Source: Candidatus Kaiserbacteria bacterium (lineage in GTDB: Bacteria > Patescibacteriota > Minisyncoccia > Phycocordibacterales > UBA918). From it: a DNA stretch of 64,000 nucleotides. Shown piece after piece: positions 4,276-38,367 of the stretch (position 1 is its first letter; each line of letters opens with the position of its first letter). The notes under the pieces were generated by a model that worked only from the letters and a program-made list of their open reading frames with translations, was not told the origin of the DNA and searched no databases. Position numbers and translations under genes: made by a program. The stretch lies in NCBI GenBank assembly GCA_031423775.1, contig JANPGF010000011.1, positions 31,502-95,501 on the forward strand, in the 5' to 3' direction.

Positions 4276-4350
4276 GCACCTGTAGTGAAACGGATATCAT
4301 ACCGGTCTTCGGAACCGTTGTTCCAGGTTCGAGTCCTGGCAGGTGCACCA
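4276..4350 (+). tRNA. tRNA-Arg (anticodon TCG), CCA encoded
   Basis: Manual fold: 7-bp acceptor stem GCACCTG/CAGGTGC, D-stem GTGA/TCAT, anticodon loop CTTCGGA, T-arm CCAGG-TTCGAGT-CCTGG, 3' ACCA. Confidence 0.7.
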
Positions 4351-4557
4351 GAGTAAACAACAAAAATACCATTCGAAAGAATGGTATTTTTGTTGTTTAG
4401 TATCTGCCCTGCGGCAGATACGGGCTCTGGTGCAAACCGCAGGCATGTTTTGGCTATTCCTAATGCCAAAACAGCCGAGGTGGGGTCGACAGCACTTACT
4501 ACAATTGGAACGTAGTGACCAATTTTAGTTAGTGACTGGGTGACCACCTGTGCAATG

Positions 4558-4878
4558 TTACGAATAAATCCCCCAATCGCGAACAATATGCCAGTGTGGC
4601 ACCCAGTGCACAATGTTCGCCGGATCAAATTTCTTTTCAATTGTTTTTATCGAAATAATTTGTTCAGGTTTGAGTGGTACCGGGTGCTGCGGCTCACTGC
4701 TTGTGGAATAGAAGTGGTATCTTGGTTCCCCTGTACTGCTGCGACGCCAAGGTCCGTAATCAAGCGGGATGAGTGTTTGAGTCACTAATCCTTTTGTGAC
4801 AGCATTGTAAGTCACTTCAAGTACTTCGCAATTTTGAATTGCACTAGTAAAAACATCCTTTAAAATCAGGTCTTTCAT
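4558..4878 (-). CDS. Hypothetical protein (106 aa)
   Basis: Uninterrupted ORF with normal composition. No family recognised. Confidence 0.4.
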   Translation of the reverse strand: MKDLILKDVFTSAIQNCEVLEVTYNAVTKGLVTQTLIPLDYGPWRRSSTGEPRYHFYSTSSEPQHPVPLKPEQIISIKTIEKKFDPANIVHWVPHWHIVRDWGIYS

Positions 4879-5118
4879 TTGGTTATATGATTAGTGTGAA
4901 CACTTGTCAGCTTGACCAGTAATAATACAGGTCTATACTGAAAGTATTCACAATAGTGATTAATTTACAAAACGCGTTACTTTTTGCGAGGTGCGCATTT
5001 TGTTTATATATTATACCACGCGGTCATGCGTCACTTTTTTGCACTTTATTTTGTGGATTCTGTTCATAACTCTCATTTAATTAAGTGAAGTACTCCGACC
5101 GTTATATACTAATCAAAC

Positions 5119-5619
5119 ATGCCCACCCTACTTTCCTACCCAACCGACCAATTTGTCTATAAATACCTCGCGGGTCCCGTTGAAACAGCCGCAGAAATTG
5201 AAGCTGGGGTGGTTGAGGGTAACTGTCGCTATGCACTCCAGCTCTATTTTTACCGGTTACATGGAAAATTCTTTGAGCGGGATGAGATATATTTACCGGG
5301 CGGGTATAAAGTCATTGGCGAGTTTATCTTTAAAGAAGAACCAATAGATTTTACGGTGCTACAGTCAGGTGATGTCATATATGCGCAAAACCTGCGAAAT
5401 AAAGAAGGCTATGACGTTGATAAGAGTTTGGAACGTTATAAAGACAAAGACGAGTGGTTGTATTATCTCCATTCTGCCGTCTATGTGGGCGCGATTGAGG
5501 CCGGTAGTAATACTGACTATATCTGGCATGCAACCCATATTGGTGGCGGACCAGTGTTATGGACTCTAGAGCATTTTTTGTACTACTATAAACCGATATC
5601 TGCAAAACGTGTGCTGTAG
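5119..5619 (+). CDS. Hypothetical protein, possibly a papain-like (NlpC/P60-type Cys...His) hydrolase
   Basis: Cys (GNCRYALQLYF) followed by His-containing motifs (HSAVYVG, YIWHATHIGG) in NlpC/P60-like order. The assignment is tentative. Confidence 0.4.
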   Translation: MPTLLSYPTDQFVYKYLAGPVETAAEIEAGVVEGNCRYALQLYFYRLHGKFFERDEIYLPGGYKVIGEFIFKEEPIDFTVLQSGDVIYAQNLRNKEGYDVDKSLERYKDKDEWLYYLHSAVYVGAIEAGSNTDYIWHATHIGGGPVLWTLEHFLYYYKPISAKRVL

Positions 5620-5856: not shown

Positions 5857-5888
5857 AAAGCCACCCGAATCATCAGGTGGTTTTTTGT
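5857..5888 (+). terminator. Rho-independent terminator
   Basis: Hairpin ccacccgaatcatcaggtgg followed by ttttttg. Confidence 0.5.
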
Positions 5889-5935
5889 TGTTATGGCTAG
5901 TAAATAAAGCGTTTTTCAGTCATACTAAAGTCATT

Positions 5936-6575
5936 ATGAAACGTACCGTTATGTTGTTGGCCGGGAATGCTCTGGCCGCTTTTATGGACTTTGGGATTGG
6001 TACCGCGATAGCAGCTGGTGTTGCAACTTGGTATGGAACAAGCTTGCCTTGGTATTTAGTTTTTTTAGGTGGCGTACTTTCGCTTGTGCCGGACTTTGAT
6101 TTAGTGCCGTCCGTGATTCGTGGCATATCACCATCATTTGACCATAGACAAACCCCATTTCATCGACCACTGTTAATGCTGCCGTTGACCATTACTACCG
6201 CCTATCTCTCTCTTTGGTGGCGGCATGTGGGCACTGATTACCGGGTTATGTGTTTTTGGCCATTACATACATGACACTAATTTTGTTGGTACCAACTATG
6301 GTATTGCCTGGTTCTGGCCTTTTTCGCATCAATATTGGTCAGTGTCTGGTTCATTTACTCCCGAAGTACATGTTGGATCGCACCATGAATGGTTACTTCA
6401 AAACTGGCTTAAGCCCTCGGTTCTCTCGCTGCGAGAAATTAGCATTGGATTGCTGGGACTCGGTGTTGCACTCTGGTGTATGGCCGTCCCCGCGCAAATA
6501 ATTGCCCTAGTGGTACTGCTTGCAGTTGTGGCGGTAAATAGTTTTTGGTTTACTGTTCGTTTTCTTTCTGCTTAA
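5936..6575 (+). pseudogene. Membrane-bound metal-dependent hydrolase (DUF457/YdjM-like) split over two overlapping +1-shifted ORFs (5936-6274 and 6225-6575)
   Basis: Both halves are multi-TM and carry His/Asp motifs (FDHRQTPFHRP; GHYIHDTNF), and they overlap by 50 nt in different frames. This is consistent with a frameshift, a sequencing error, or two genuinely separate genes. Confidence 0.35.
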
Positions 6576-7329
6576 TGGGAAGGCCAATTTCCCAAACTGT
6601 GTCAAAGAAAGCCTTCATCATTTCGGTATGTTCGGTTGATTGCATAAGGACCGCATAACAGTCTTTTTTTGGAGATACATAGAGCGTTTTGTCGTCGTAG
6701 ATGAAAAACGTTGTGGCAAAACGGTTATGCATGGGAATCGGTAACTGTTTAATGTCTGAAGTGCTGTAGTATTCATCCATAATGCTCCGTTTCGGAATAT
6801 CTTCCCACAGGGCGATGGTGGTAATGGAGCGTTTTTGTTTCTCCTGAACGTAATTTTCAACAAATCCCCTCCCCATTTCGTGGAAAAAGTTCTCCGCCGG
6901 CACAATACTGCGGATGGTTTTGTCTTTGCTGTATAAACTATAGGAAATCGCACCCGTGATAGTTTCAATGGTATCAAAGTAGGTTACTAGGGTTTTTCCT
7001 TCAGATTTCTGAGTCGGATAAAAGCGTTCTAATTGTTTTGTTTGTAGGAGGAGACGTTCCTGCTGTCTAATCGTGTTCTCGACGAGGGCCGTGAGGTGTG
7101 AGAGTGATGCAACCTGGAATTTATTGCCATATTCTCTACCTGTTTTATGAACCAGTCCCCTTTTTTCCAGGGAGTTGAGCGAGTAGTAGATAGTTGGCCG
7201 CTTTTCAGCTGTTGTTTTTATTATCTCTTGGACGCTGCGTGCTCCGCCCAAGAGCGCTTGGTAAACAACCACTTCTGCCGGGGCGAGGCCGATCTGTTCG
7301 AGGAGTGTCTCTATATCGCGGGTATCCAT
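6550..7329 (-). CDS. TrmB-family transcriptional regulator
   Basis: N-terminal wHTH (LLEQIGLAPAEVVVYQALLGGARSVQEIIKTT...SLNSLEKRGLV) and a TrmB-like C-terminal domain. The start is taken at MDTRDIE. Confidence 0.6.
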   Translation of the reverse strand: MDTRDIETLLEQIGLAPAEVVVYQALLGGARSVQEIIKTTAEKRPTIYYSLNSLEKRGLVHKTGREYGNKFQVASLSHLTALVENTIRQQERLLLQTKQLERFYPTQKSEGKTLVTYFDTIETITGAISYSLYSKDKTIRSIVPAENFFHEMGRGFVENYVQEKQKRSITTIALWEDIPKRSIMDEYYSTSDIKQLPIPMHNRFATTFFIYDDKTLYVSPKKDCYAVLMQSTEHTEMMKAFFDTVWEIGLPIKQKENEQ

Positions 7330-7427
7330 ATCACTAGTTGTATAGTCATTATTATACAAGATTGAACACTGCCTGTGCAACCGGTATGCTTCCCTCAGAA
7401 CGTTCTTTATTGTGAAAAGGAAAAGAG

Positions 7428-7811
7428 ATGACTTGCTCAGTAGTCGTGCTCGTTATTGCACATCTGATTGGCGACTTTATGTTCCAGACTACCAACATGG
7501 CTGATCGGAAATATCTCGCTGGTTGGTTGGGGACTCTATGGTGTACGCTCCATGTGACTATCTATACTGCCGGGTTGGCGTTTGCGCTCCAGAGTATGTC
7601 CCCGTACCTTCTGCTTGGTATCTTTGTCCCGCACTGGTTGATTGACCGCTATTCACTCTCTTACCACTGGATGCAGTTGATTGGTCGAGCCGCCCTGTTG
7701 TCTCACAAGCATCCTACTAAAGCAGCATTTGGCGCCATTATCTATGTAGTGACTGATCAGACATTGCATCTAGTATCGCTCACTGTCCTCTTTACCTTCC
7801 TCAAACTCTGA
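7428..7811 (+). CDS. DUF3307-family membrane protein
   Basis: The AHLIGDFMFQT motif is typical of DUF3307. The protein has 3-4 TM helices. Confidence 0.5.
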   Translation: MTCSVVVLVIAHLIGDFMFQTTNMADRKYLAGWLGTLWCTLHVTIYTAGLAFALQSMSPYLLLGIFVPHWLIDRYSLSYHWMQLIGRAALLSHKHPTKAAFGAIIYVVTDQTLHLVSLTVLFTFLKL

Positions 7812-7823
7812 AAGGAAAATATC

Positions 7824-8231
7824 ATGGGAATAAGCATGTTTGGTTCACGTTGTTCGTGTGATCCTCCGAAACGTAACGAACGGATTGTCTATGTGGAGGT
7901 TCCGGTATCTATGCCGGCTCCGTCATGTGCCCCCAGACTTCCTCTCGGAAATCCTGATCCGGCACGGTTTACCTTGGGGCAACTGCAGGCAATTGGTCGG
8001 TTTACGATTGTGCGGGTTCAGTACCCCGATTGTCACAATTTTGAAGGTGAGAAGATTTTGGTCTTTGAGGGGGTGTCAGTCAAAGAAGTGAAAGAATTAC
8101 GTACCCTTGATCCCCATTTCTGTAATGGTGCCCATCCGTCACCAGTCGCGCGGTTTGTTCCAACAAAAAATGGTGGAAGTATACCGTTGCTTTTTGCTCG
8201 GCAGCGTCTAAGGTTACTTAGAAGTATATAA
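7824..8231 (+). CDS. Hypothetical protein (135 aa)
   Basis: ORF with an RBS-like AAAGGAAAATATC before the ATG. Its C-terminal ...SPVARFVPTKNGG resembles a fragment near tRNA-Gly(TCC) at 21590-21640. Confidence 0.4.
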   Translation: MGISMFGSRCSCDPPKRNERIVYVEVPVSMPAPSCAPRLPLGNPDPARFTLGQLQAIGRFTIVRVQYPDCHNFEGEKILVFEGVSVKEVKELRTLDPHFCNGAHPSPVARFVPTKNGGSIPLLFARQRLRLLRSI

Positions 8232-8266
8232 AAAGCCCGGCAATTTCTTGCCGGGCTTGGTTTGTT
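8231..8266. terminator. Bidirectional terminator
   Basis: Hairpin aagcccggcaatttcttgccgggctt flanked by A and T runs. Confidence 0.5.
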
Positions 8267-8276
8267 TACGAGGTTG

Positions 8277-9992
8277 TTATTCCCCGATCTTCTTCGCCGC
8301 TCCGCTTGTGAACGAAGGGCTGTGGACGAGCATGAACGCTTGCTGCTCGATCATATCGTTGATACACGTAAGCAAGGAAGGTTTCAGATTCTCTTCCGTA
8401 AAGAACCAGTTCACCGCCTGAACCGCCACCAGCTCTTGAAGCTGTTTGATCCGCCTATCAGACGTATCGCACTTTGCCCAAACCGGATGCCGGATGTTGA
8501 AGCGCAGCACCCCGAGGGTATCTTCAAAGATCCAGAGCCGTTCTTCCCCCGACAGATTCTCGTAGCTGAATTGGAGTCCAAATGAACCCCCTTCCACGAT
8601 ATGTCGCCGCGGCCCCTTTGGACCGGTTACCGTCAAAGGGTGATGGTCTTTGAGGGTTTGCGGAGGATCGGTTTGCGGCTTTGACGTACTTCCTCCGGTA
8701 GATGTCGCAGTAGTGCCGGTTTCTTTTTTAGTTCGCTGCGAAGGTACGTCTTGAACGCCCACAATGGCTTCGGCGTCACTGTGACCTTTTCCTATCGTTC
8801 CTTGCTTAAGGAGGTTAAGGAGTTCAGCTAAGTGTTTGAAACGCTCCGTGGTCAGCATAGCTTCGATGCTTTGCATCGATTCTAGTCCCAGTTTTTGGTA
8901 TCGTGCGCCCTGCTGGGATTCCTCGACGCTCTCTATATGGTGAGCACCAACTTCGAGGAACCACTGCTCGAGTGCTTGAGCGAAACGTACCAATCCGTCA
9001 TTCACATTGAATTGCTTACGGTTTTCATGCAGCGTAACGGCACCCGAATGGATCTCTCCTTCAAAGATCCCTGACTTGAGGGCATTCTTAACAGCTTCTG
9101 AGATATACTCGCCGCAGTTCTTGACGAGGAGGCCGAATTCAAAGCGGAACGGGTTGTGAGATTCACCTACCACAACCATCCCATTACTTTTCCCTTTGCG
9201 TCCTTCGGCCTTGGCCAGATAGAGACGAAAGGTCGTACGGATACCGTCACTATTGTGGATAAATTCAGGCAATCTCACTCCGGTATGTTCTGGAGCTTGC
9301 AAGCCATTTTGCGATTCGGTTTTACCAGCTTCGCTTGTGAATTCGATGTTCAGTAGAATCTTCTTGGTCCGCATGACAGACCCGTAACGGCTGAAGATCT
9401 CTTTGGCCAAGTCATCGATCGAACCGATCCGGCCAATCTCGCGATCGGTCGAATAGTTCCGCAGTGAGGTTTTTGTCCGCCACGTTACTTGGGAAACGAT
9501 TTTCGAATCGATGGTAAGGGTCTTGTTGGACTTTCCAAACCGAATGTTCGGTTGCGGAACGTGCGGGATACGTGGTTTTGGATTTGGTGCGATCTCTGCC
9601 GCACGGAAGGTCCACTGCATATAAGCGTCCACTTGGCCCTTGGGACACGAGGTGAAAGTCATCACCTCGCACTTATCAATGGGAGAAACCAGTCCATGCC
9701 CGAAGCGCCCCAACTTATCAGTCCCTTTGGACGATTGTCCGCGCCGCAGAAGGGCTTCGTTAAATTGTCCGGTTGACGTGCCCTCGCCATCATCAGAGAC
9801 ATCAAGACTACGCTTTTTCCGGTCAAGCTTCACCCAAATGTTTTTTGGGCTGCTATCGACCGCATTTTGAACTATCTCAAGGGTTGCAGCGATGAGAGTG
9901 GGATACAGTTTCGCAGACAGCATCAGGGAACTTCCCCCATGCATGCTGATCTCGCTGTCGCCTGCCGTCAGTGTAGTATTTTGCGCTATCAT
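8277..9992 (-). CDS. GHKL-superfamily (HATPase_c / MORC-like) ATPase, 571 aa
   Basis: N-box and G1-box motifs near the N-terminus (LEIVQNAVDSSPKN ... DVSDDGEGTS ... GRFGHGL). Its start overlaps the stop of the upstream ORF (ATGA), which indicates translational coupling. Confidence 0.6.
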   Translation of the reverse strand: MIAQNTTLTAGDSEISMHGGSSLMLSAKLYPTLIAATLEIVQNAVDSSPKNIWVKLDRKKRSLDVSDDGEGTSTGQFNEALLRRGQSSKGTDKLGRFGHGLVSPIDKCEVMTFTSCPKGQVDAYMQWTFRAAEIAPNPKPRIPHVPQPNIRFGKSNKTLTIDSKIVSQVTWRTKTSLRNYSTDREIGRIGSIDDLAKEIFSRYGSVMRTKKILLNIEFTSEAGKTESQNGLQAPEHTGVRLPEFIHNSDGIRTTFRLYLAKAEGRKGKSNGMVVVGESHNPFRFEFGLLVKNCGEYISEAVKNALKSGIFEGEIHSGAVTLHENRKQFNVNDGLVRFAQALEQWFLEVGAHHIESVEESQQGARYQKLGLESMQSIEAMLTTERFKHLAELLNLLKQGTIGKGHSDAEAIVGVQDVPSQRTKKETGTTATSTGGSTSKPQTDPPQTLKDHHPLTVTGPKGPRRHIVEGGSFGLQFSYENLSGEERLWIFEDTLGVLRFNIRHPVWAKCDTSDRRIKQLQELVAVQAVNWFFTEENLKPSLLTCINDMIEQQAFMLVHSPSFTSGAAKKIGE

Positions 9993-10801
9993 CGTTTAGT
10001 CTCCTGTTTGTTTGATTGGCTGCGCGCGCGTTCGCTGCACAGTTGATCAAATACATTACTGAGTTTAAAGATGTCGTCTCGGCCAGCCAGTTCACGTAAT
10101 ACTGCTCGTTCCTCGGCGGTGAAAGCATCGGAAACGATCAGTTCGAGCAGGGGCTTTAGTCCTTGCACGAGATGTGCGGCACTCTGCAGGATGGTATCGT
10201 GTGACAATTTTGGTTTTGTTTTCTCGGGGGCCTTTGGCAGCATTGGTTTGCTGGTCAAAGGGGCTACTACTTCTGTCGGCACCACGGTAAGGATGGGTGC
10301 TACAACTTCAATAGCAATTGGCAATTTAGCCGCACCATACTGTTCGTCGAACAGTTGCTTTGCGACTTCCAGGTCCTCGGCGTGCTGATTGATGAATTGT
10401 CGCAATGCCGGTTCCCTCTCTTCAAGAATTGACCGGTCGTATTCAAATGCCTGGTACATCTTGTCGGTAGGTGTGGCACCTTGAAACCCAAAGCCATCGA
10501 TTGCGAGCGTTCGCGCGTCCATGACTCCAAGGGCAAACAATTTGATCGCGCGCTGATAGAGGGGTCGGATATTCACAAATTGCGGTATGGTGTAGCCTAG
10601 TTGGGAGAAGAAGGCGATTGAGCGCCATTTATTCCCGCCAGTTGGGTTGTTTTTCCCATTTAACCACCGTGTGATGGTTGGGTTTTGGCTCGCCCCCGTG
10701 AATTCGCCTAGTAAAAGACGCCTAGGGTCGTTCTTAGGAAATCGCGTATTAAAGTCGCGAAAACATTCCTCCAGTGTGAGTGGGTGACTAGTTATCTGCA
10801 T
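9989..10801 (-). CDS. Hypothetical protein, translationally coupled partner of the GHKL ATPase
   Basis: ORF ending in ATGA overlap with the downstream ATPase. The ATG at 10801 has an AAGGAAA RBS; the TTG at 10828 is an alternative start. Confidence 0.5.
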   Translation of the reverse strand: MQITSHPLTLEECFRDFNTRFPKNDPRRLLLGEFTGASQNPTITRWLNGKNNPTGGNKWRSIAFFSQLGYTIPQFVNIRPLYQRAIKLFALGVMDARTLAIDGFGFQGATPTDKMYQAFEYDRSILEEREPALRQFINQHAEDLEVAKQLFDEQYGAAKLPIAIEVVAPILTVVPTEVVAPLTSKPMLPKAPEKTKPKLSHDTILQSAAHLVQGLKPLLELIVSDAFTAEERAVLRELAGRDDIFKLSNVFDQLCSERARSQSNKQETKR

Positions 10802-10996
10802 GTGTAGTTTCCTTGTGTCAAAGGACAATTTCCCTAATCGCCATCATAGAGTGTTAATTATGTTTGTCAAGAAGTATATGCAATTATATACTTATTTTTC
10901 AACCTATTTCAATAAAATTCACACAAAAACTCACCACCAATTTTAGAAATTTTATCTAAGACCAGACATTATTTAAATTATCGGTATACTACTGCT

Positions 10997-11333: not shown

Positions 11334-12065
11334 ATGGGAAATAAACGACTGATTTTGCTTGATCATGCGATACGAAGAATCAAACACGGGGACGAACACG
11401 GTCGTCGGACTCAGCTGAAAACCATGCAAGTGCTTGATATTATTGGGGATCCACGCCTCTATGTCCCCTATCGTGGAAAAGTCAGTGACGGACGAGTGTT
11501 TTTTAGTGTAGTAGACCAAAAATGCTTGGTGGCCTGGATCGAAGAGTGCGATACTCACTACAAAGTGCACACGGTTGAAAATCATCACAACCTAATCCCC
11601 TTGCCAGTACTCTTGCGTGCCGAACAAAAAGTGCTTGGTGATATGGGATTTATGCGGCGGTTCACAAAACCCCCTGCGGACCCATCCTCTGATGCTATTT
11701 GCCGAATTAGTTCGGGTGATCTAACCCTAACCTTGTCCGGGTATCTGCATCAAGGTATCAGTTGGTGGCGTTCTGCGACAAATGTTAGGCAACTCCTGGG
11801 TTTTATCCAGAAACACGATCTTGACGGTACGGAATCGTTGATTCTTAACGGTCATGTGTGGCATGGTCGCAAGGAACGCATAGTGGAATGGAGTGAGCGG
11901 TTCCCTCTCACCTTGCCCCGAACACTGTACCAGGCGGGCAATCAGCCTGGCACAACGCCAGATTTTGCGACAATCACTGCACAGGTACTGGAAAACAACG
12001 CAGAAAGGAGGAAATTATGTCTAGTAAAAGACAATTACGTTGGCGCTCGTGCGAAAAGAAAATAA
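11334..12065 (+). CDS. Hypothetical protein (243 aa)
   Basis: Long ORF with an RBS (ACAGGAGGTGTC) upstream of the ATG. No family recognised. Confidence 0.45.
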   Translation: MGNKRLILLDHAIRRIKHGDEHGRRTQLKTMQVLDIIGDPRLYVPYRGKVSDGRVFFSVVDQKCLVAWIEECDTHYKVHTVENHHNLIPLPVLLRAEQKVLGDMGFMRRFTKPPADPSSDAICRISSGDLTLTLSGYLHQGISWWRSATNVRQLLGFIQKHDLDGTESLILNGHVWHGRKERIVEWSERFPLTLPRTLYQAGNQPGTTPDFATITAQVLENNAERRKLCLVKDNYVGARAKRK

Positions 12066-12220
12066 AACACGAGTCCCAAGACCAGGCATATGTTCATAGG
12101 CGTCGTCTACCTGGTCGCTATTCCGTGTATAAGTGTACGTTTTGTGGCGGTTGGCATGTTGGACGTGCGACCAAAGAAGTAAAACAAGCAATGGCTGCTC
12201 GCCAAGAACGTAAACGGTAA
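12017..12220 (+). CDS. Small zinc-ribbon-like basic protein (67 aa), overlapping the end of the previous ORF
   Basis: CEKK...CTFCGGWHV gives a C-x-C ... CxxC pattern. RBS GGAGGAAATT before the ATG. Confidence 0.3.
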   Translation: MSSKRQLRWRSCEKKIKHESQDQAYVHRRRLPGRYSVYKCTFCGGWHVGRATKEVKQAMAARQERKR

Positions 12221-12320: not shown

Positions 12321-13004
12321 ATGACAAAAGTTGGTACCTACAAACCTGAAGCCTACGAACAAGCCGTTCAATTTCGGCGTCGCGGCTTCACATACTCTGA
12401 AATAGCCAAGATTTGCGCCGTTTCCCGTGGCACTATCAGTAATTGGCTTAAAAATGAAGACTTTTCGCAAGTCGTGGCCAAAGATAATCAAAAGAAAGCC
12501 GCTCTCGATAATACAAAACGATTATCTTTGATTAATAAAGCTCGCAATAGCGAACGTAAAAATCAGTACGATGCCATCGTAAAGGCTGCGGAAACAGAAT
12601 ATAAGCATTATCGTACCTCCCCGCTCTTTACGGCCGGCCTAGCGCTCTATATGAGTATTGGTGACCATGCTGACGCACGAGTGATTCGTGTAACGAGTAG
12701 TAATAGTAACTTGCACCGCATCTTTATCAGATTTGCTATGGAGTATCTCGGTGTTGAGAAAAAAAATCTTCATATTTGGCTCCTTCTCTATCCTGATCTG
12801 GACGAAGTGACCTGCATGAAACACTGGATCAAGAAAACTAGCCTGAATGCCAGCCATTTCTACAAAAATCAGATAGTAAACAGCCGTAGCAACAAAGCCA
12901 CGTTGCATTTTGGTGTTGGAAATACTATAATCGGCAGTACTTTGCTCAAGCGCAAGTTAGAAACCTGGCTACAGCTTGCAACAAAGGAGCTTACAATCAA
13001 GTAA
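12321..13004 (+). CDS. HTH domain plus LAGLIDADG-like homing-endonuclease-like protein (paralog of 3552-4226)
   Basis: HTH-like AVQFRRRGFTYSEIAKICAVSRGTISNWL plus LFTAGLALYMSIGDHADARVIRV. It is collinear with the 3552-4226 protein, and its stop codon lies 2 nt before tRNA-Gly(GCC). Confidence 0.5.
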   Translation: MTKVGTYKPEAYEQAVQFRRRGFTYSEIAKICAVSRGTISNWLKNEDFSQVVAKDNQKKAALDNTKRLSLINKARNSERKNQYDAIVKAAETEYKHYRTSPLFTAGLALYMSIGDHADARVIRVTSSNSNLHRIFIRFAMEYLGVEKKNLHIWLLLYPDLDEVTCMKHWIKKTSLNASHFYKNQIVNSRSNKATLHFGVGNTIIGSTLLKRKLETWLQLATKELTIK

Positions 13005-13006
13005 AT

Positions 13007-13078
13007 GCGGCCATGGTTAAGTGGTATAATGAGTCCTTGCCAAGGATTAGTCGGGGTTTCGATTACCCCTGGCCGCAC
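13007..13078 (+). tRNA. tRNA-Gly (anticodon GCC)
   Basis: Manual fold: acceptor GCGGCCA/TGGCCGC, D-stem GTTA/TAAT, anticodon stem AGTCC/GGATT with loop TTGCCAA, T-arm GGGGT-TTCGATT-ACCCC. CCA is not encoded. Confidence 0.75.
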
Positions 13079-13110
13079 TTATGAAAAAGACCCTCACACG
13101 GGGTCTTTTT

Positions 13111-13285
13111 CATATGTGCGGCCAGGAGAAAGGTGCCTGCGCACCTTTCGGGGTAATCGAAACCGCCTGAATGATGTAGCTTTGCTACGAATGAGGCGTG
13201 ACCCGCGGCACTTGCTAGATTTGGAGCCGTTAGGCGAACAAATATAGCTTAGTGACCGTCAGGTTTCGATTACCCCTGGCCGCAC
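13111..13285 (+). repeat. tRNA-Gly(GCC)-derived pseudo element: degenerate 5' acceptor half (GCGGCCAGG) plus an exact 24-nt copy of the tRNA 3' half (13261-13284), with about 150 nt of unrelated sequence between them
   Basis: The sequence ggtttcgattacccctggccgcac is an exact 24-nt direct repeat of 13055-13078. Each copy is followed by a terminator-like hairpin. Confidence 0.45.
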
Positions 13286-13467
13286 ATATTAAGAAGACAC
13301 CCTTCTCTAGAAGGGTGTCTTCTTAATTTTGCCCGGGTAATCGAAAGCCCGATTGAGCTATATTGGAAGCGTAGCGCACCAATCTAGCCAATTGGGGTAC
13401 TGCTCCTGTAAGGAGGCGATTACCCCCCCCATAGTCAGATTTACACTCTCCATCTATACTTCTACCA

Positions 13468-35979: not shown

Positions 35980-38367
35980 TTGCAGGACAGAAAAAGGGAG
36001 CTGGGGTTAATCACCCCGGTGTCATCAATGTTTCAGAGACTCTTTGACACACTGTCAGCTCTGCCGGTTCACGGCATTGCTTCACAGGTAACGACTCGTG
36101 TCCTAGCGGGCACGGTGTCTGTGGTCGCTTCGGCGACGGGTAGTGGTAAAACACTGCTGTTGCCGGCGAGCTTGGCCATGCAGACCGGAAAGGTCGTGTA
36201 TGTCCTTGTTCCTCGTCGGTTCTTGGCGGTGAATGCTGCCGAAACGGTGGCAGAACTGTCAGGTTTGAAGGTGGGGCAGGAAGTGGGCTTTGCGATTGGT
36301 GCTCAGTCGGGCGAAGATTCGCAACGTTCCATGAATACCCGGGTGCTCTACTGCACCTACGGCTATGCGCTCGCAAGCGGTATCATCAACACTGCAGAAA
36401 ATTTCGTGTTTGATGAAATCCACGAAGCATCGCTCGACATGTCTATCTGTCGGGCCTTAGTCTATCGCCGAATTGCAAATGGCGAGCGGGTCAATGTGCT
36501 CGAGATGAGCGCAACGATTGATGCCGAGCGTCAGGCTGCCTATTGGCGGCCGGTGGCAAAAGTCAACGTGACGGAAATCGATGGCCGCACCTTCTCGTGT
36601 GAACGTCGGCATCGTCCGGCAGAGAGGCCAGAAGAGGCGGTGCTCGACTTGATCGCTGAAGGACGGACGGGTATTCTCGTTTTCCGTCCTGGTCGTGGTG
36701 AGGTTGAACATACAGCAGAGGCAATTCGGTCGCTCGTAGGAGAGGATGTTGAGGTCGCCGAAATCTATGGTGAACTCGACTATATCTCACGTAAAGCGGC
36801 CGTTGCTGCACCGAAAGGTGTGGTGAAGGTGCTCGTTGGTACCAACGTTGTTGAATCGGGTGCAAATATCACCTGGCTCGACGCGGGTGTGTCCTGCGGT
36901 AAAGCCAAAGAGCTGTCTGTGCGTCCGGAAACGGGCGCAACGTATCTCGCGCAGATTGATTTGCCACGGTGGCGGCTCGATCAGCAAGAGGGGCGCGTAA
37001 AGCGTTTCCGGAAAGGAATTTTTGTGCTCTGTTCGCCGCTGTCGTATGAAAAGCGGCCAGCCGAAACTACCCCGGAAATCAGGCGTCTGTCGCTCACCGA
37101 ACTCGTCATGCACTGCGCCTCGTTTGGCATTCGGGCTGAAGAGTTGGTCTTTGACTACTCGCCAGACCGTATGCGTATTCTAGAAGCAGAGACGAAATTA
37201 CAACGACTGGGTCTGGTTGACGCGGACTGCAGGCTAACAGAAGCTGGTAAGTTTGTGTCAGGCATACCCGTCGGGCCGGAAACGGGGGCAATGTTGTGGC
37301 ACGCCAAGCACATCGGTGTGCTGGATGCCGCCCTACCCTTGGCGGCAGTAATCGAGGTTGATGGGGTGCGGAAAGACTCTCGCGATTCCCATCATATAAA
37401 TGGTGTTTCGGATTGGCTCGATAGCTGCAAGGCTTTTGAGACGGTCTACAATGAACACAACAAATACGAACGAAAGGAGTTGATGAGACAATATAACGTC
37501 GGCTACAAACGATTTGAAGCCGCTAAAGACTTGTTGCATGACCTGATGCGTCGCTTTAGTGGCAGTGCTCAAATCATGCTCGAGGCGACGGACGATCATT
37601 TGAAGCAATGCCTGGTGGCAGGATTCATCACGAACCTGTTCCTAGGCACCCGTTTCCTCAGGCCCCTTTCGGGTGATCAGTATCTGGAATACAGTCCAGG
37701 TAATGGTTCGAGCGTACTGTTACATAGTGGATTTGCCCTCGGTCAGCTGCGCACTATTACGCCAAAGGATACACTCAAGCGTCCGTTTACGATTGTCGAA
37801 AAACTGACCGACGTGTCACTCTTCGACATTCTAGAGCTGGTCAAAGTTCGGCCGACTCTCGTTGAAACAACGGAACAGCGTGATGAAATCGGCCGATTCC
37901 GCTACGAAACCACTACCCGCCGGAAACTCTTCGGCGTGTATGAATTACCGGTCGAGCGGAGCGAAAGCCCGCTTACGCCCGAAGAAGCAGCCGAAAAGGA
38001 GGTGTATGAACGGACTAAAGATGAGTTTCGTCGTCGTCTGTACCTGTTGAATGACAAGCGTGAAGCACTGAGTATGTCCTCGGTTCGATTCGAGGATGAG
38101 TATTTCCGACTAGGATATATCGGCCGTGCCTACACCTATACGGAAACTGATGTGCTCCAGGCCGAACGTGACAGTGCGCAAGTAATCGAAGACGTGCGTG
38201 CCCGCCAAGCGTTGGATAAAAGACGGGAAGAACGTACTCTCAGCGATATTCTCGAGCGTGCGCTGCGAGAAAAACAACGGCCGGTAGTTTCTCCGGTACC
38301 ACCTCCTCCAGAGCCAATTGATCTCGCAGCAGGGATCGAGGCATTGAGGAAGCGATTTGGTCGCTAA
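35980..38367 (+). CDS. DEAH-box ATP-dependent helicase (HrpA/HrpB-like)
   Basis: Motif I GSGKT, motif II DEIHE, SAT, motif VI-like; 795 aa. Local GC is about 58% against about 45% in the flanks. Confidence 0.8.
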   Translation: MQDRKRELGLITPVSSMFQRLFDTLSALPVHGIASQVTTRVLAGTVSVVASATGSGKTLLLPASLAMQTGKVVYVLVPRRFLAVNAAETVAELSGLKVGQEVGFAIGAQSGEDSQRSMNTRVLYCTYGYALASGIINTAENFVFDEIHEASLDMSICRALVYRRIANGERVNVLEMSATIDAERQAAYWRPVAKVNVTEIDGRTFSCERRHRPAERPEEAVLDLIAEGRTGILVFRPGRGEVEHTAEAIRSLVGEDVEVAEIYGELDYISRKAAVAAPKGVVKVLVGTNVVESGANITWLDAGVSCGKAKELSVRPETGATYLAQIDLPRWRLDQQEGRVKRFRKGIFVLCSPLSYEKRPAETTPEIRRLSLTELVMHCASFGIRAEELVFDYSPDRMRILEAETKLQRLGLVDADCRLTEAGKFVSGIPVGPETGAMLWHAKHIGVLDAALPLAAVIEVDGVRKDSRDSHHINGVSDWLDSCKAFETVYNEHNKYERKELMRQYNVGYKRFEAAKDLLHDLMRRFSGSAQIMLEATDDHLKQCLVAGFITNLFLGTRFLRPLSGDQYLEYSPGNGSSVLLHSGFALGQLRTITPKDTLKRPFTIVEKLTDVSLFDILELVKVRPTLVETTEQRDEIGRFRYETTTRRKLFGVYELPVERSESPLTPEEAAEKEVYERTKDEFRRRLYLLNDKREALSMSSVRFEDEYFRLGYIGRAYTYTETDVLQAERDSAQVIEDVRARQALDKRREERTLSDILERALREKQRPVVSPVPPPPEPIDLAAGIEALRKRFGR

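Follow-up and report, generated by a model that had tools for sequence, protein, structure and literature searches.

A GHL ATPase and an XRE-type helix-turn-helix partner form a conserved two-gene module in Patescibacteria, tentatively linked to genome conflict

Prokaryotic MORC and paraMORC ATPases are components of restriction-modification and defence systems (PMC2292703; PMC12137116). The MORC-defining motif GhXhhpXXRhl, located in the S5-fold domain, unifies the prokaryotic and eukaryotic MORCs (PMC2292703), and paraMORC3 corresponds to VcSduA of the Shedu type I-D systems (PMC12137116). GHKL-superfamily proteins are also found in two-gene units, paired with a small partner of their own. 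In CapK/CapS, the kinase CapK is of the SpoIIAB type, carries STAS domains and phosphorylates a STAS-winged-helix-turn-helix repressor, and it lies beside the immune operon that is controlled (PMC13373217). In HEF_HK/Response_reg_2, the GHKL protein has a DHp-like domain and a second HATPase_c domain, and the pair occurs in restriction-modification contexts with a linkage of 91.6% (PMC8011034). Here we report on a pair of genes in a 64,000-nucleotide stretch of contig JANPGF010000011.1 from a Candidatus Kaiserbacteria bacterium, referred to as the window (all coordinates are those of the window). A preliminary description, made from the letters of the DNA, had seen in this pair a translationally coupled module of a protein without recognisable domains and a MORC-like ATPase. 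Both open reading frames (ORFs) were recovered on the minus strand:

8277..9992, minus strand, GHKL ATPase gene (571 amino acids (aa), ATG start; family of at least 352 clusters at E ≤ 1e-30)
9989..10801, minus strand, partner gene, a proposed XRE-type helix-turn-helix (HTH) adaptor or regulator (270 aa; a homologue adjoins the ATPase in 75 of 78 loci)

The association of the two genes was assessed in 90 related loci gathered from assemblies, GTDB genomes and JGI metagenomes, in which all ORFs were searched with iterated hidden Markov models. Co-conservation had been set beforehand as a test of the module, and the outcome was strongly positive: the partner lies directly adjacent to the ATPase and on the same strand in 75 of the 78 loci with a readable flank. 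The junction typically overlaps by 1–4 nt or leaves a gap of less than 40 nt. The three exceptions differ in kind. In L086 a frameshifted ATPase shares 4 nt with a divergent partner-like protein of 335 aa, L082 is truncated at the end of its contig, and only L072 clearly has no partner, a Cys-rich protein of 142 aa (7131-7559) being found upstream instead. After collapsing the loci at ≤90% ATPase identity, 76 lineages remained. Within six genes on either side of the pair, the partner is the only gene family present in more than six loci, and no third conserved gene was found in these 76 lineages. The co-conservation therefore points to a two-gene functional module that has no third obligatory component. 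The pairwise identities of the ATPase and the partner are also correlated (r = 0.69, Mantel p ∼0.001; r = 0.51 among pairs below 45% identity).

Three of the 75 loci, which are distant members (27–28% identity), show the inverse gene order; here the partner is located immediately downstream, abutting or overlapping the ATPase stop (L064, 4605-5276; L065, 5453-6124; L067, 9692-10402). The ATPase frame is broken into two or three ORFs in L072 and L086 (4692-6337 in the latter), which may represent either frameshifted pseudogenes or assembly errors. An ORF family of about 95 aa (ITFSLS.W.G..P..GQVV.L......GWRA) is present directly upstream of the partner and on the same strand in 6 of the 76 lineages (L013, 4141-4440; L017, 6950-7234; L022, 211-507; L031, 668-1006; L051, 6949-7224; L054, 3072-3320). 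In one subclade it may serve as an accessory component in addition to the pair; no counterpart is present in the window.

The translational coupling of the genes in the window was confirmed as well. The stop codon of the partner (TGA, 9991-9989) and the start codon of the ATPase (ATG, 9992-9990) form an ATGA overlap (junction ...CGATGATAG..., with the letters ...ACT AAA CGA TGA TAG CGC...), and an AGGAG Shine-Dalgarno sequence is present 8 nt upstream of the ATPase start, within the last codons of the partner gene. The mechanically called partner ORF spans 9989..10828 and starts with TTG, which would yield a protein of 279 aa; in the public annotation of this sequence the protein has 270 aa. 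A 16-nt element (CCTTTGACAnAAGGAA) is invariant in the upstream DNA of close relatives, and the Shine-Dalgarno sequence within it precedes the ATG at 10801 by 8 nt. We therefore place the start at this ATG, in agreement with the public gene call and with the 270 aa given in the preliminary description. The control elements of the operon are as follows:

10809..10824, minus strand, conserved element of the 5'-untranslated region (CCTTTGACACAAGGAA), holding the Shine-Dalgarno sequence and a CCTT/AAGG mini-palindrome; invariant in the window, L001-3, L005 and L006
10843..10870, minus strand, sigma-70-type promoter, TTGACA-16-TATGAT (11/12, near-consensus); the -35 box TTGACAAA is invariant in L001-3, L005 and L006
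10872..10893, no strand, candidate operator, a perfect 8-bp inverted repeat (AAGTATAT-N6-ATATACTT) that abuts the -35 box
8233..8258, no strand, bidirectional intrinsic terminator (11-bp stem with 7 GC pairs), directly after the ATPase stop and common to a convergent gene of 135 aa

Promoter and terminator bracket exactly the two genes, which therefore constitute one discrete transcription unit. The candidate operator is only partly kept in L001 (7/8). Inverted repeats upstream of the partner genes are modestly enriched relative to dinucleotide-preserving shuffles (mean z 1.15, p ∼0.001), with z > 2 in 12 of 47 loci. The partner may bind at this palindrome.

The sequence motifs reported for the 571-aa protein, LEIVQNAVDSS (residues 38-48), DDGEGTS (66-72) and GRFGHGL (95-101), correspond to Bergerat motifs I-III. 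Pfam HATPase_c_3 (PF13589) matches the protein over residues 35-128, scoring 42 bits (cut-off 25; E = 1.2e-10), and it matches 77 of 77 family members. The form of motif I, ExxxNxxD, is that of MutL, GyrB, Hsp90 and MORC, and not the N-box of histidine kinases. The assignment as a GHL/MORC-like rather than a kinase-type GHKL ATPase thus holds. Along the protein, five regions were distinguished:

9297..9965, minus strand, Bergerat-fold GHL ATPase domain, residues ∼10-232 (E39-x2-Q42-N43-x2-D46; D67-x-G69-x-G71; K89; G95-x2-G98-x-G100)
9000..9296, minus strand, transducer-like middle region, residues ∼233-331 (SGxFEGEI at 307-314; R325)
8814..8999, minus strand, long helix or predicted coiled coil, residues ∼332-393 (helices 332-380 and 383-393 in the AlphaFold2 (AF2) model, low confidence; W344 invariant)
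8664..8813, minus strand, low-complexity disordered linker, residues ∼394-443 (predicted local distance difference test (pLDDT) < 30; poorly conserved and of variable length)
8280..8663, minus strand, C-terminal domain of unknown fold, residues ∼444-571 (HxPxTVxGPxGxxRxxV...SxGLQF...GxLxFNxRHPxW)

The catalytic motifs are intact throughout the family: E39, N43, D46, D67, G69, G71, K89, G95, G98 and G100 are conserved in 95–100% of 199 full-length members. In the same set R325 and W344 are 100% invariant. The conserved elements past the GHKL core further include G398 and H404, and in the C-terminal domain G472, N499, R463, G457 and G460 (93–98%; N499 98%, R463 96%) and H502 (89%). The ∼440 residues outside the HATPase_c_3 core match nothing known. 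In a Pfam scan of the 77 members no family was found beyond residue ∼230; the sub-profile of residues 228-400 did not match solved structures, and that of residues 444-571 gave no significant match in the PDB or Pfam and no nuclease family (52 C-terminal domains). The best match of the latter, the TFIIA beta-barrel (E = 0.02), was judged spurious. R325 is located 286 residues after the catalytic E39, in a part of the AF2 model that is of low confidence. In MORC, paraMORC, MutL, GyrB and Hsp90, an S5-fold transducer domain behind the GHKL domain contributes a conserved basic residue to the active site. The E39-to-R325 spacing is comparable to that of the phosphate-sensing lysines of MutL (E29-K307) and GyrB (E42-K337), and by its position R325 is likely a phosphate-sensing 'finger' of the transducer type.

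Searched against the PDB, the family profile matched MutL (4e-8), HtpG, Hsp90 and Grp94 (∼1e-7 to 1e-5) and MORC2 (1.5e-5; 5of9), in all cases over residues ∼30-120 only, and Foldseek searches with the ATPase model retrieved Hsp90, Grp94, HtpG and MutL. The model was built from 7 sequences and is of low confidence (pLDDT 51). It was asked whether the protein is a housekeeping MutL, GyrB or HtpG fragment or a sensor kinase. This is not the case: only the GHKL core of ∼90 residues aligns, NCBIfam scores are far below cut-off, and the transducer, C-terminal and DHp domains of these proteins are absent. For MutL, the alignment is confined to residues 32-119 and the NCBIfam models score 14 bits against cut-offs of 180-840. 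For Hsp90/HtpG, PF00183 is absent from the 77 members, the PDB matches cover the N-domain only, and sub-profiles of the middle and C-terminal regions match nothing. By eye, the segment FEGEI-x-S-x4-L-x3-R-x2-F resembles the catalytic-arginine motif of the Hsp90 middle domain. The profile of the middle region does not find Hsp90, and an Hsp90-like middle domain with a catalytic arginine was rejected as more than a lead. A histidine kinase or SpoIIAB-type kinase, including CapK, was rejected on the absence of HisKA, STAS and HEF_HK domains and on the ExxxNxxD form of the N-box.

The comparison with the described systems places the pair closest to the paraMORC ATPases in the way it works, and outside every described family. 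The likeness to paraMORCs (PMC2292703) lies in the N-terminal GHL ATPase of the HATPase_c_3 type, in which all four nucleotide-binding motifs are present, in the conserved basic residue of the region that follows, in a C-terminal extension that is conserved within the family and specific to it, in a length of ∼550–600 aa and in a patchy, context-shifting distribution. In contrast to paraMORCs, the present family is not embedded with superfamily II (SFII) helicases, nucleases or methylases, it has no DUF4263/restriction endonuclease (RE)-fold, TIR or HxH C-terminal domain, its named members all belong to the candidate phyla radiation (CPR), and it has an obligatory XRE-HTH partner, which is not described for paraMORCs. 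Systems of the paraMORC restriction-modification type were rejected since no SFII helicase, RE-fold or HNH nuclease, or methylase is a conserved neighbour in the 76 lineages, and Shedu/paraMORC3 since neither its C-terminal PD-(D/E)xK nuclease domain DUF4263 nor another nuclease was detected (77 full-length members, 52 C-terminal domains) and PADLOC gave no SduA match. MORC proper shares the GHL core (MORC2, as above), a predicted coiled coil and a plausible DNA-clamp logic with a DNA-binding recruiter. It differs in having the GhXhhpXXRhl motif, CW, chromo and other accessory domains, all absent here; the family consensus is SGxFEGEI-x6-L-x3-R-x2-F with a G312-to-R325 spacing of 13 and not 8, and no segment fits the motif.

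The best Foldseek matches of the model are Hsp90, HtpG and Grp94, and they include alignments of ∼410–430 columns to full-length Hsp90, but with a root-mean-square deviation (rmsd) of 16–18 Å on a low-confidence model; Hsp90 systems also have no HTH partner. The N-terminal ATP-binding-like domain of sacsin is matched in NCBIfam with E = 6e-8, which is below the cut-off (33 vs 50 bits), and Pfam SACS is matched by 15 of 77 members. CapK/CapS resembles the pair in being a two-gene unit of a GHKL-superfamily protein and a dedicated small partner with a DNA-binding HTH involved, and HEF_HK/Response_reg_2 in the GHKL protein with dedicated small partner at very high linkage. Both were rejected because their domains (STAS, DHp-like, second HATPase_c) are absent from the family. 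The placement outside described families follows from the joint absence of the MORC motif, the restriction-modification neighbourhood, the paraMORC3/Shedu nuclease, and the CapK/CapS and HEF_HK/Response_reg_2 domains.

Controller (C) proteins of restriction-modification systems and XRE-type HigA/HipB antitoxins share with the partner a small XRE-HTH gene that is upstream of and overlaps an effector gene, with a palindrome at its own promoter; the palindromes at C-protein promoters are known as C-boxes. The partner is 2–3 times larger than these proteins and has an additional helical domain, a long linker and a C-terminal module that is strongly conserved, and the downstream gene is not recognisable as a nuclease or toxin. 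In the PADLOC-DB v2 defence models (a library from 2023), only ∼65 residues of the GHKL core align, to TmtA (a profile of 1486 aa), MzaB and REase_II, and the partner has no consistent match; identity with any of these systems was therefore rejected. The nearest GHKL cores in that library are those of Tiamat TmtA (59 of 77 members, best 2.9e-12), MzaB and GHKL-type type II restriction enzymes, and in NCBIfam those of BbrUII and MzaB.

The partner had been described as having no recognisable domains. For the window protein alone this stands, as it has no match in Pfam, NCBIfam or PADLOC. At the level of the family it does not, since the profile reveals an XRE/Cro-C1-type HTH, and the window protein aligns with its family throughout. 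Two regions were delineated:

10598..10774, minus strand, XRE/Cro-C1-type helix-turn-helix, residues ∼10-68 (profile and Pfam matches at family level)
10016..10204, minus strand, conserved C-terminal helical module, residues ∼200-262 (SD..F...ER..LR...G....F.LSN.L..LCSE.AR), a proposed ATPase-docking element

A profile of 52 partners matched PDB entry 3op9 (E = 8e-4) and the C2 repressor of phage P22 (E = 8e-3) with the helix-turn-helix itself aligned. HTH_3 matches 7 of the 52 partners individually (best 8.6e-7), next to HTH_31, HTH_26, HTH_19 and Xre-like-HTH. The seven Pfam families that recur most often among the partners are all HTH. W46 and G55 are nearly invariant in the N-terminus. The AF2 model has an all-helical N-domain (5-160, pLDDT 80–93), a proline-rich disordered linker (163-199) and three C-terminal helices (201-268, pLDDT 50–64). 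In PDB and BFVD, Foldseek retrieved no significant match for the partner; the sole well-superposed matches were XRE proteins (GraA, an HTH_3 regulator and a LexA-like repressor; rmsd 3–4 Å over 56–73 columns). The C-terminal module is the most conserved part of the partner, with R232, R236 and L254 nearly invariant, and may dock on the ATPase.

The Saccharibacteria metagenome-assembled genome (MAG) locus L007 (CAYGLL010000014) holds a second partner paralogue (4418-5185), 4.8 kb upstream of the pair, with a histidine-kinase gene following 750 bp downstream. The C-terminal ∼50 residues of the two paralogues are near-identical and their HTH regions are divergent, as expected if the C-terminus is a constant ATPase-binding end and the HTH a variable end for DNA specificity.

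The size of the ATPase family was determined by an exhaustive profile search over 1.84 billion representative proteins, which yielded 1154 matches at E ≤ 1e-3 and 352 at E ≤ 1e-30; the best 150 matches were almost all full-length (∼550–600 aa), and ∼350–480 clusters at 50% identity were found. A first genome scan with a single sequence found no relative, and a word-indexed protein search returned 7 ATPase relatives only (7 and 5 matches overall). The family is thus large but invisible to the word-indexed search. Every member with a named source belongs to CPR/Patescibacteria. A scan of 185,579 GTDB species representatives, limited by its peptide pattern, gave three matches. The named members include two Saccharibacteria MAGs, Peribacteria, a Candidatus Paceibacterota member (HYD93071.1, on a 742-kb contig), a Parcubacteria member (MBI2459538.1) and two of the 'Patescibacteria group' (MFC1656546.1 and MBU1092407.1). 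The named members are annotated just as 'ATP-binding protein' or 'hypothetical protein'. The carrier contigs reach 0.74–1.0 Mb, the size of whole CPR chromosomes. The number of clusters together with the three matches in the pattern-limited GTDB scan argues for a patchy rather than a universal distribution.

The pair, and the partner above all, evolves more rapidly than the genes around it. In a comparison of the window with L001, the identity is 91% for the CCA-adding enzyme and 78% for TrmB, and drops to 69% for the ATPase and 51% for the partner. The genomic position of the pair differs between lineages. The raised GC content noted earlier was found again: 0.513 and 0.499 for the two genes against 0.455 for the window. 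At third codon positions (GC3) the values are 0.563 and 0.521, against a mean of 0.429 (standard deviation (sd) 0.06, 43 window ORFs), an offset of +1.5 to +2.2 sd.

MutL, GyrB/TopoVI-B, Hsp90 and MORC are constitutive dimers whose N-domains dimerise on binding of ATP, thereby forming a gate or clamp on DNA or protein clients. On this basis our preferred, if tentative, reading is that the ATPase is bound by the HTH partner, which would guide it to DNA; there the ATPase would function as a clamp, with genome conflict as the probable setting. In this mechanism the C-terminal module of the partner would dock on the ATPase, and its HTH would tether the complex to specific DNA, including a candidate operator at its own promoter. 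Binding of ATP would then close the N-terminal gate of a constitutively dimeric ATPase, and gate closure would trap or compact the bound DNA, or switch on the C-terminal domain. We infer the physical interaction, the DNA targeting, the clamp action and the conflict role from sequence and genomic context. For the role of the module, genome conflict (restraint of phage or other foreign DNA, or an addiction-like module) is most likely, ahead of housekeeping, because the partner evolves fast, the pair shifts its location and the GHKL core shows the affinities given above. Indirect signs of this kind, namely the fast divergence, the shifting position, the GC3 offset and the affinity of the core to Tiamat, MzaB and GHKL-type restriction enzymes, still favour such a role and do not demonstrate it. 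The matches of three small neighbours in the window to phage protein families, described below, and the known place of prokaryotic MORC and paraMORC ATPases in defence (PMC2292703; PMC12137116) also speak for a conflict role.

Several results weigh against this reading, and the candidate defence or mobile-element system of the preliminary description is not supported in that form. No nuclease, helicase, methylase, toxin or other effector domain was detectable in either protein, and no PADLOC-DB v2 system was matched beyond the GHKL core. The flanks, in which Pfam was run on 148 proteins within three genes of the pair in ∼60 lineages, are mostly housekeeping (HAD hydrolases, P-type ATPases, NYN, EF/BipA, ribosomal L10/L12, UvrB and ABC transporters); no recurrent defence or mobile-element family was found among these proteins, ResIII, Helicase_C and Methyltransf_25 occurring in 2 of 148 each. 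No viral copy was found in two scans of IMG/VR, both limited to their peptide patterns, and viral carriage was rejected within that limit. Within the clade of the window the pair is stably syntenic and not visibly mobile, and att repeats do not enclose it. The evidence for the operator is weak, as terminators of the preceding genes could account for the upstream inverted repeats. Given the poor ATPase model, neither the clamp architecture nor the S5/transducer fold nor the coiled coil is established.

A more specific version is that the pair is a CPR immune or DNA-silencing system of a new type, in which a sequence-specific HTH adaptor would load a MORC-like ATP-gated clamp on invading or selfish DNA and the C-terminal domain would be a new effector fold; we regard this as doubtful.

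A toxin-antitoxin (TA) or abortive-infection module, which we consider unlikely, would cast the HTH protein as an autorepressing antitoxin whose C-terminal module neutralises the ATPase; loss of the labile partner upon stress or phage infection would then lead to growth arrest, for example by chromosome clamping or ATP exhaustion. The architecture is type II-like, with an upstream DNA-binding protein, a disordered linker and low-confidence C-terminal helices that could fold on binding. The 4-nt overlap and the occasional inverted gene order fit this explanation, as do the self-contained nature of the pair with no third gene, the fast divergence of the partner and the palindrome at the promoter. 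However, both proteins are far larger than typical TA components and no toxin fold was detected; GHL-type ATPases are also not known to serve as TA toxins, which counts against this explanation. The frameshifts in L086 and L072 hit the ATPase and not the partner, an observation that is uninformative and could reflect sequencing errors.

In a further alternative the HTH protein would repress genes elsewhere and the ATPase would be its dedicated sensor or anti-repressor, as in ImmR/ImmA, CapH/CapP and CapK/CapS, with ATP-driven release of the repressor in response to a signal such as DNA damage or unfolded protein. An XRE repressor with a downstream, co-transcribed modifying enzyme is an established pattern (PMC13373217 for CapK/CapS, with CapH/CapP cited there), and the HTH of the partner, the tight coupling, the co-divergence, the lack of an effector domain and the housekeeping setting are compatible with it. 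Known regulators of the Cap and ImmR type adjoin their targets, whereas no target operon is conserved next to the pair in any of the 76 lineages, which weakens this alternative. Moreover, the GHKL domain is of the ATPase type (ExxxNxxD) and not of the SpoIIAB kinase type, there is no STAS domain, and a multi-domain ATPase of 570 aa with an extra conserved C-terminal domain is elaborate for a simple anti-repressor. A switch of this kind is plausible, if unlikely.

Least supported, and in our view very unlikely, is a lineage-specific housekeeping factor, either a CPR substitute for Hsp90/HtpG (a chaperone with an HTH co-factor) or a MutL-type repair protein: the top structural matches to the Hsp90 family and MutL, the sacsin-type domain matches, the chromosomal location among housekeeping genes with synteny within the clade, and the fact that all named members are CPR speak for it, but the middle and C-terminal regions are unlike the Hsp90 middle and C domains and the MutL transducer and endonuclease domains, the distribution appears patchy, the pair evolves faster than the flanking housekeeping genes, and Hsp90 systems do not come with an obligatory DNA-binding HTH partner.

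A large part of bacterial diversity belongs to CPR/Patescibacteria, which are epibionts with tiny genomes; they mostly have no CRISPR, and their lineage-specific genes are mostly unannotated. With the present analysis an 'ATP-binding protein' and a 'hypothetical protein' become one defined unit, found again in over 350 sequence clusters, in which a DNA-binding adaptor is coupled to a motor of the MutL/Hsp90/MORC type with two conserved regions that match no known family. GHL ATPase modules are already known; what is new is a putative conflict-type module of this class with HTH partner logic and two conserved regions of unknown fold. In searches of the literature on GHKL proteins in Patescibacteria, on HATPase_c_3 with HTH in defence and on paraMORC, no description of the pair was found. 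If the module acts in defence or silencing, it would extend MORC-like biology to an HTH-directed logic that needs no nuclease, helicase or methylase, and provide a handle on how ultra-small bacteria cope with phages. As a silencing system it would be a prokaryotic counterpart of the adaptor-recruited MORC silencing in eukaryotes and among the first defence mechanisms particular to the CRISPR-poor CPR. If regulatory or housekeeping, it would represent a CPR-specific use of a GHL ATPase. The module lends itself to tests in either case, since it offers two soluble proteins, clear point mutants of the catalytic site and a candidate operator, and since Saccharibacteria are genetically tractable.

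The surroundings of the pair in the window were also analysed. Of the AT-rich flanks reported before, the upstream one was found (27% GC in the intergenic DNA); the 45-bp downstream spacer, which is the terminator hairpin, has 51% GC. The bounding tRNA genes are indeed present, tRNA-Arg (4276-4350) and tRNA-Gly (13007-13078), but at distances of 4 kb and 2.2 kb; an Rfam scan of the window returned four tRNAs and nothing else. Endonuclease-like genes nearby could not be confirmed, as the neighbours match only HTH, DUF3307, TrmB and YdjM. Other genes in the window (CCA-adding enzyme, RNase Y, CorA, DUF5667 and a type IV pilus ATPase) are consistent with a CPR genome. A DEAD/ResIII-type helicase gene of 795 aa (35980-38367, plus strand) has a GC content of 0.538 and a GC3 of 0.553; it is among only three other ORFs of the 43 with GC > 0.49 and one of two others with a GC3 in the range of the pair.

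Three small neighbours of the pair match phage protein families and accompany it only in the closest relatives. The 135-aa ORF convergent with the ATPase (7824-8231, plus strand) matches phrog_13501 (E = 7.5e-26, function unknown) and is next to the pair only in L001-L003 and L091. A Cys-rich ORF of 67 aa (12017-12220, plus strand) matches phrog_14788 (E = 8e-8). A 227-aa protein (12321-13004, plus strand) with an HTH_23/terminase-small-subunit (TerS)-like HTH ends 2 nt before tRNA-Gly(GCC); it is 85% identical in L002 and thus conserved to a far greater degree than the pair. The 3' end of tRNA-Gly and 13 downstream bases are repeated (13055-13091 and 13262-13298, 92% identity, 207 bp apart), which looks like an att-like scar of integration or excision. 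Location of the pair in a prophage or genomic island was rejected, since this sole att-like repeat is on the far side of tRNA-Gly, leaving the pair outside, and the region is syntenic with L001 over ∼12 kb.

Two overlapping ORFs on the plus strand (5885-6274 and 6225-6575) each match half of the YdjM inner-membrane protein family (PF04307). Their relatives in L001 and L005 are single genes of 211–237 aa, which points to a frameshift or a sequencing error in the window, or to a pseudogene there.

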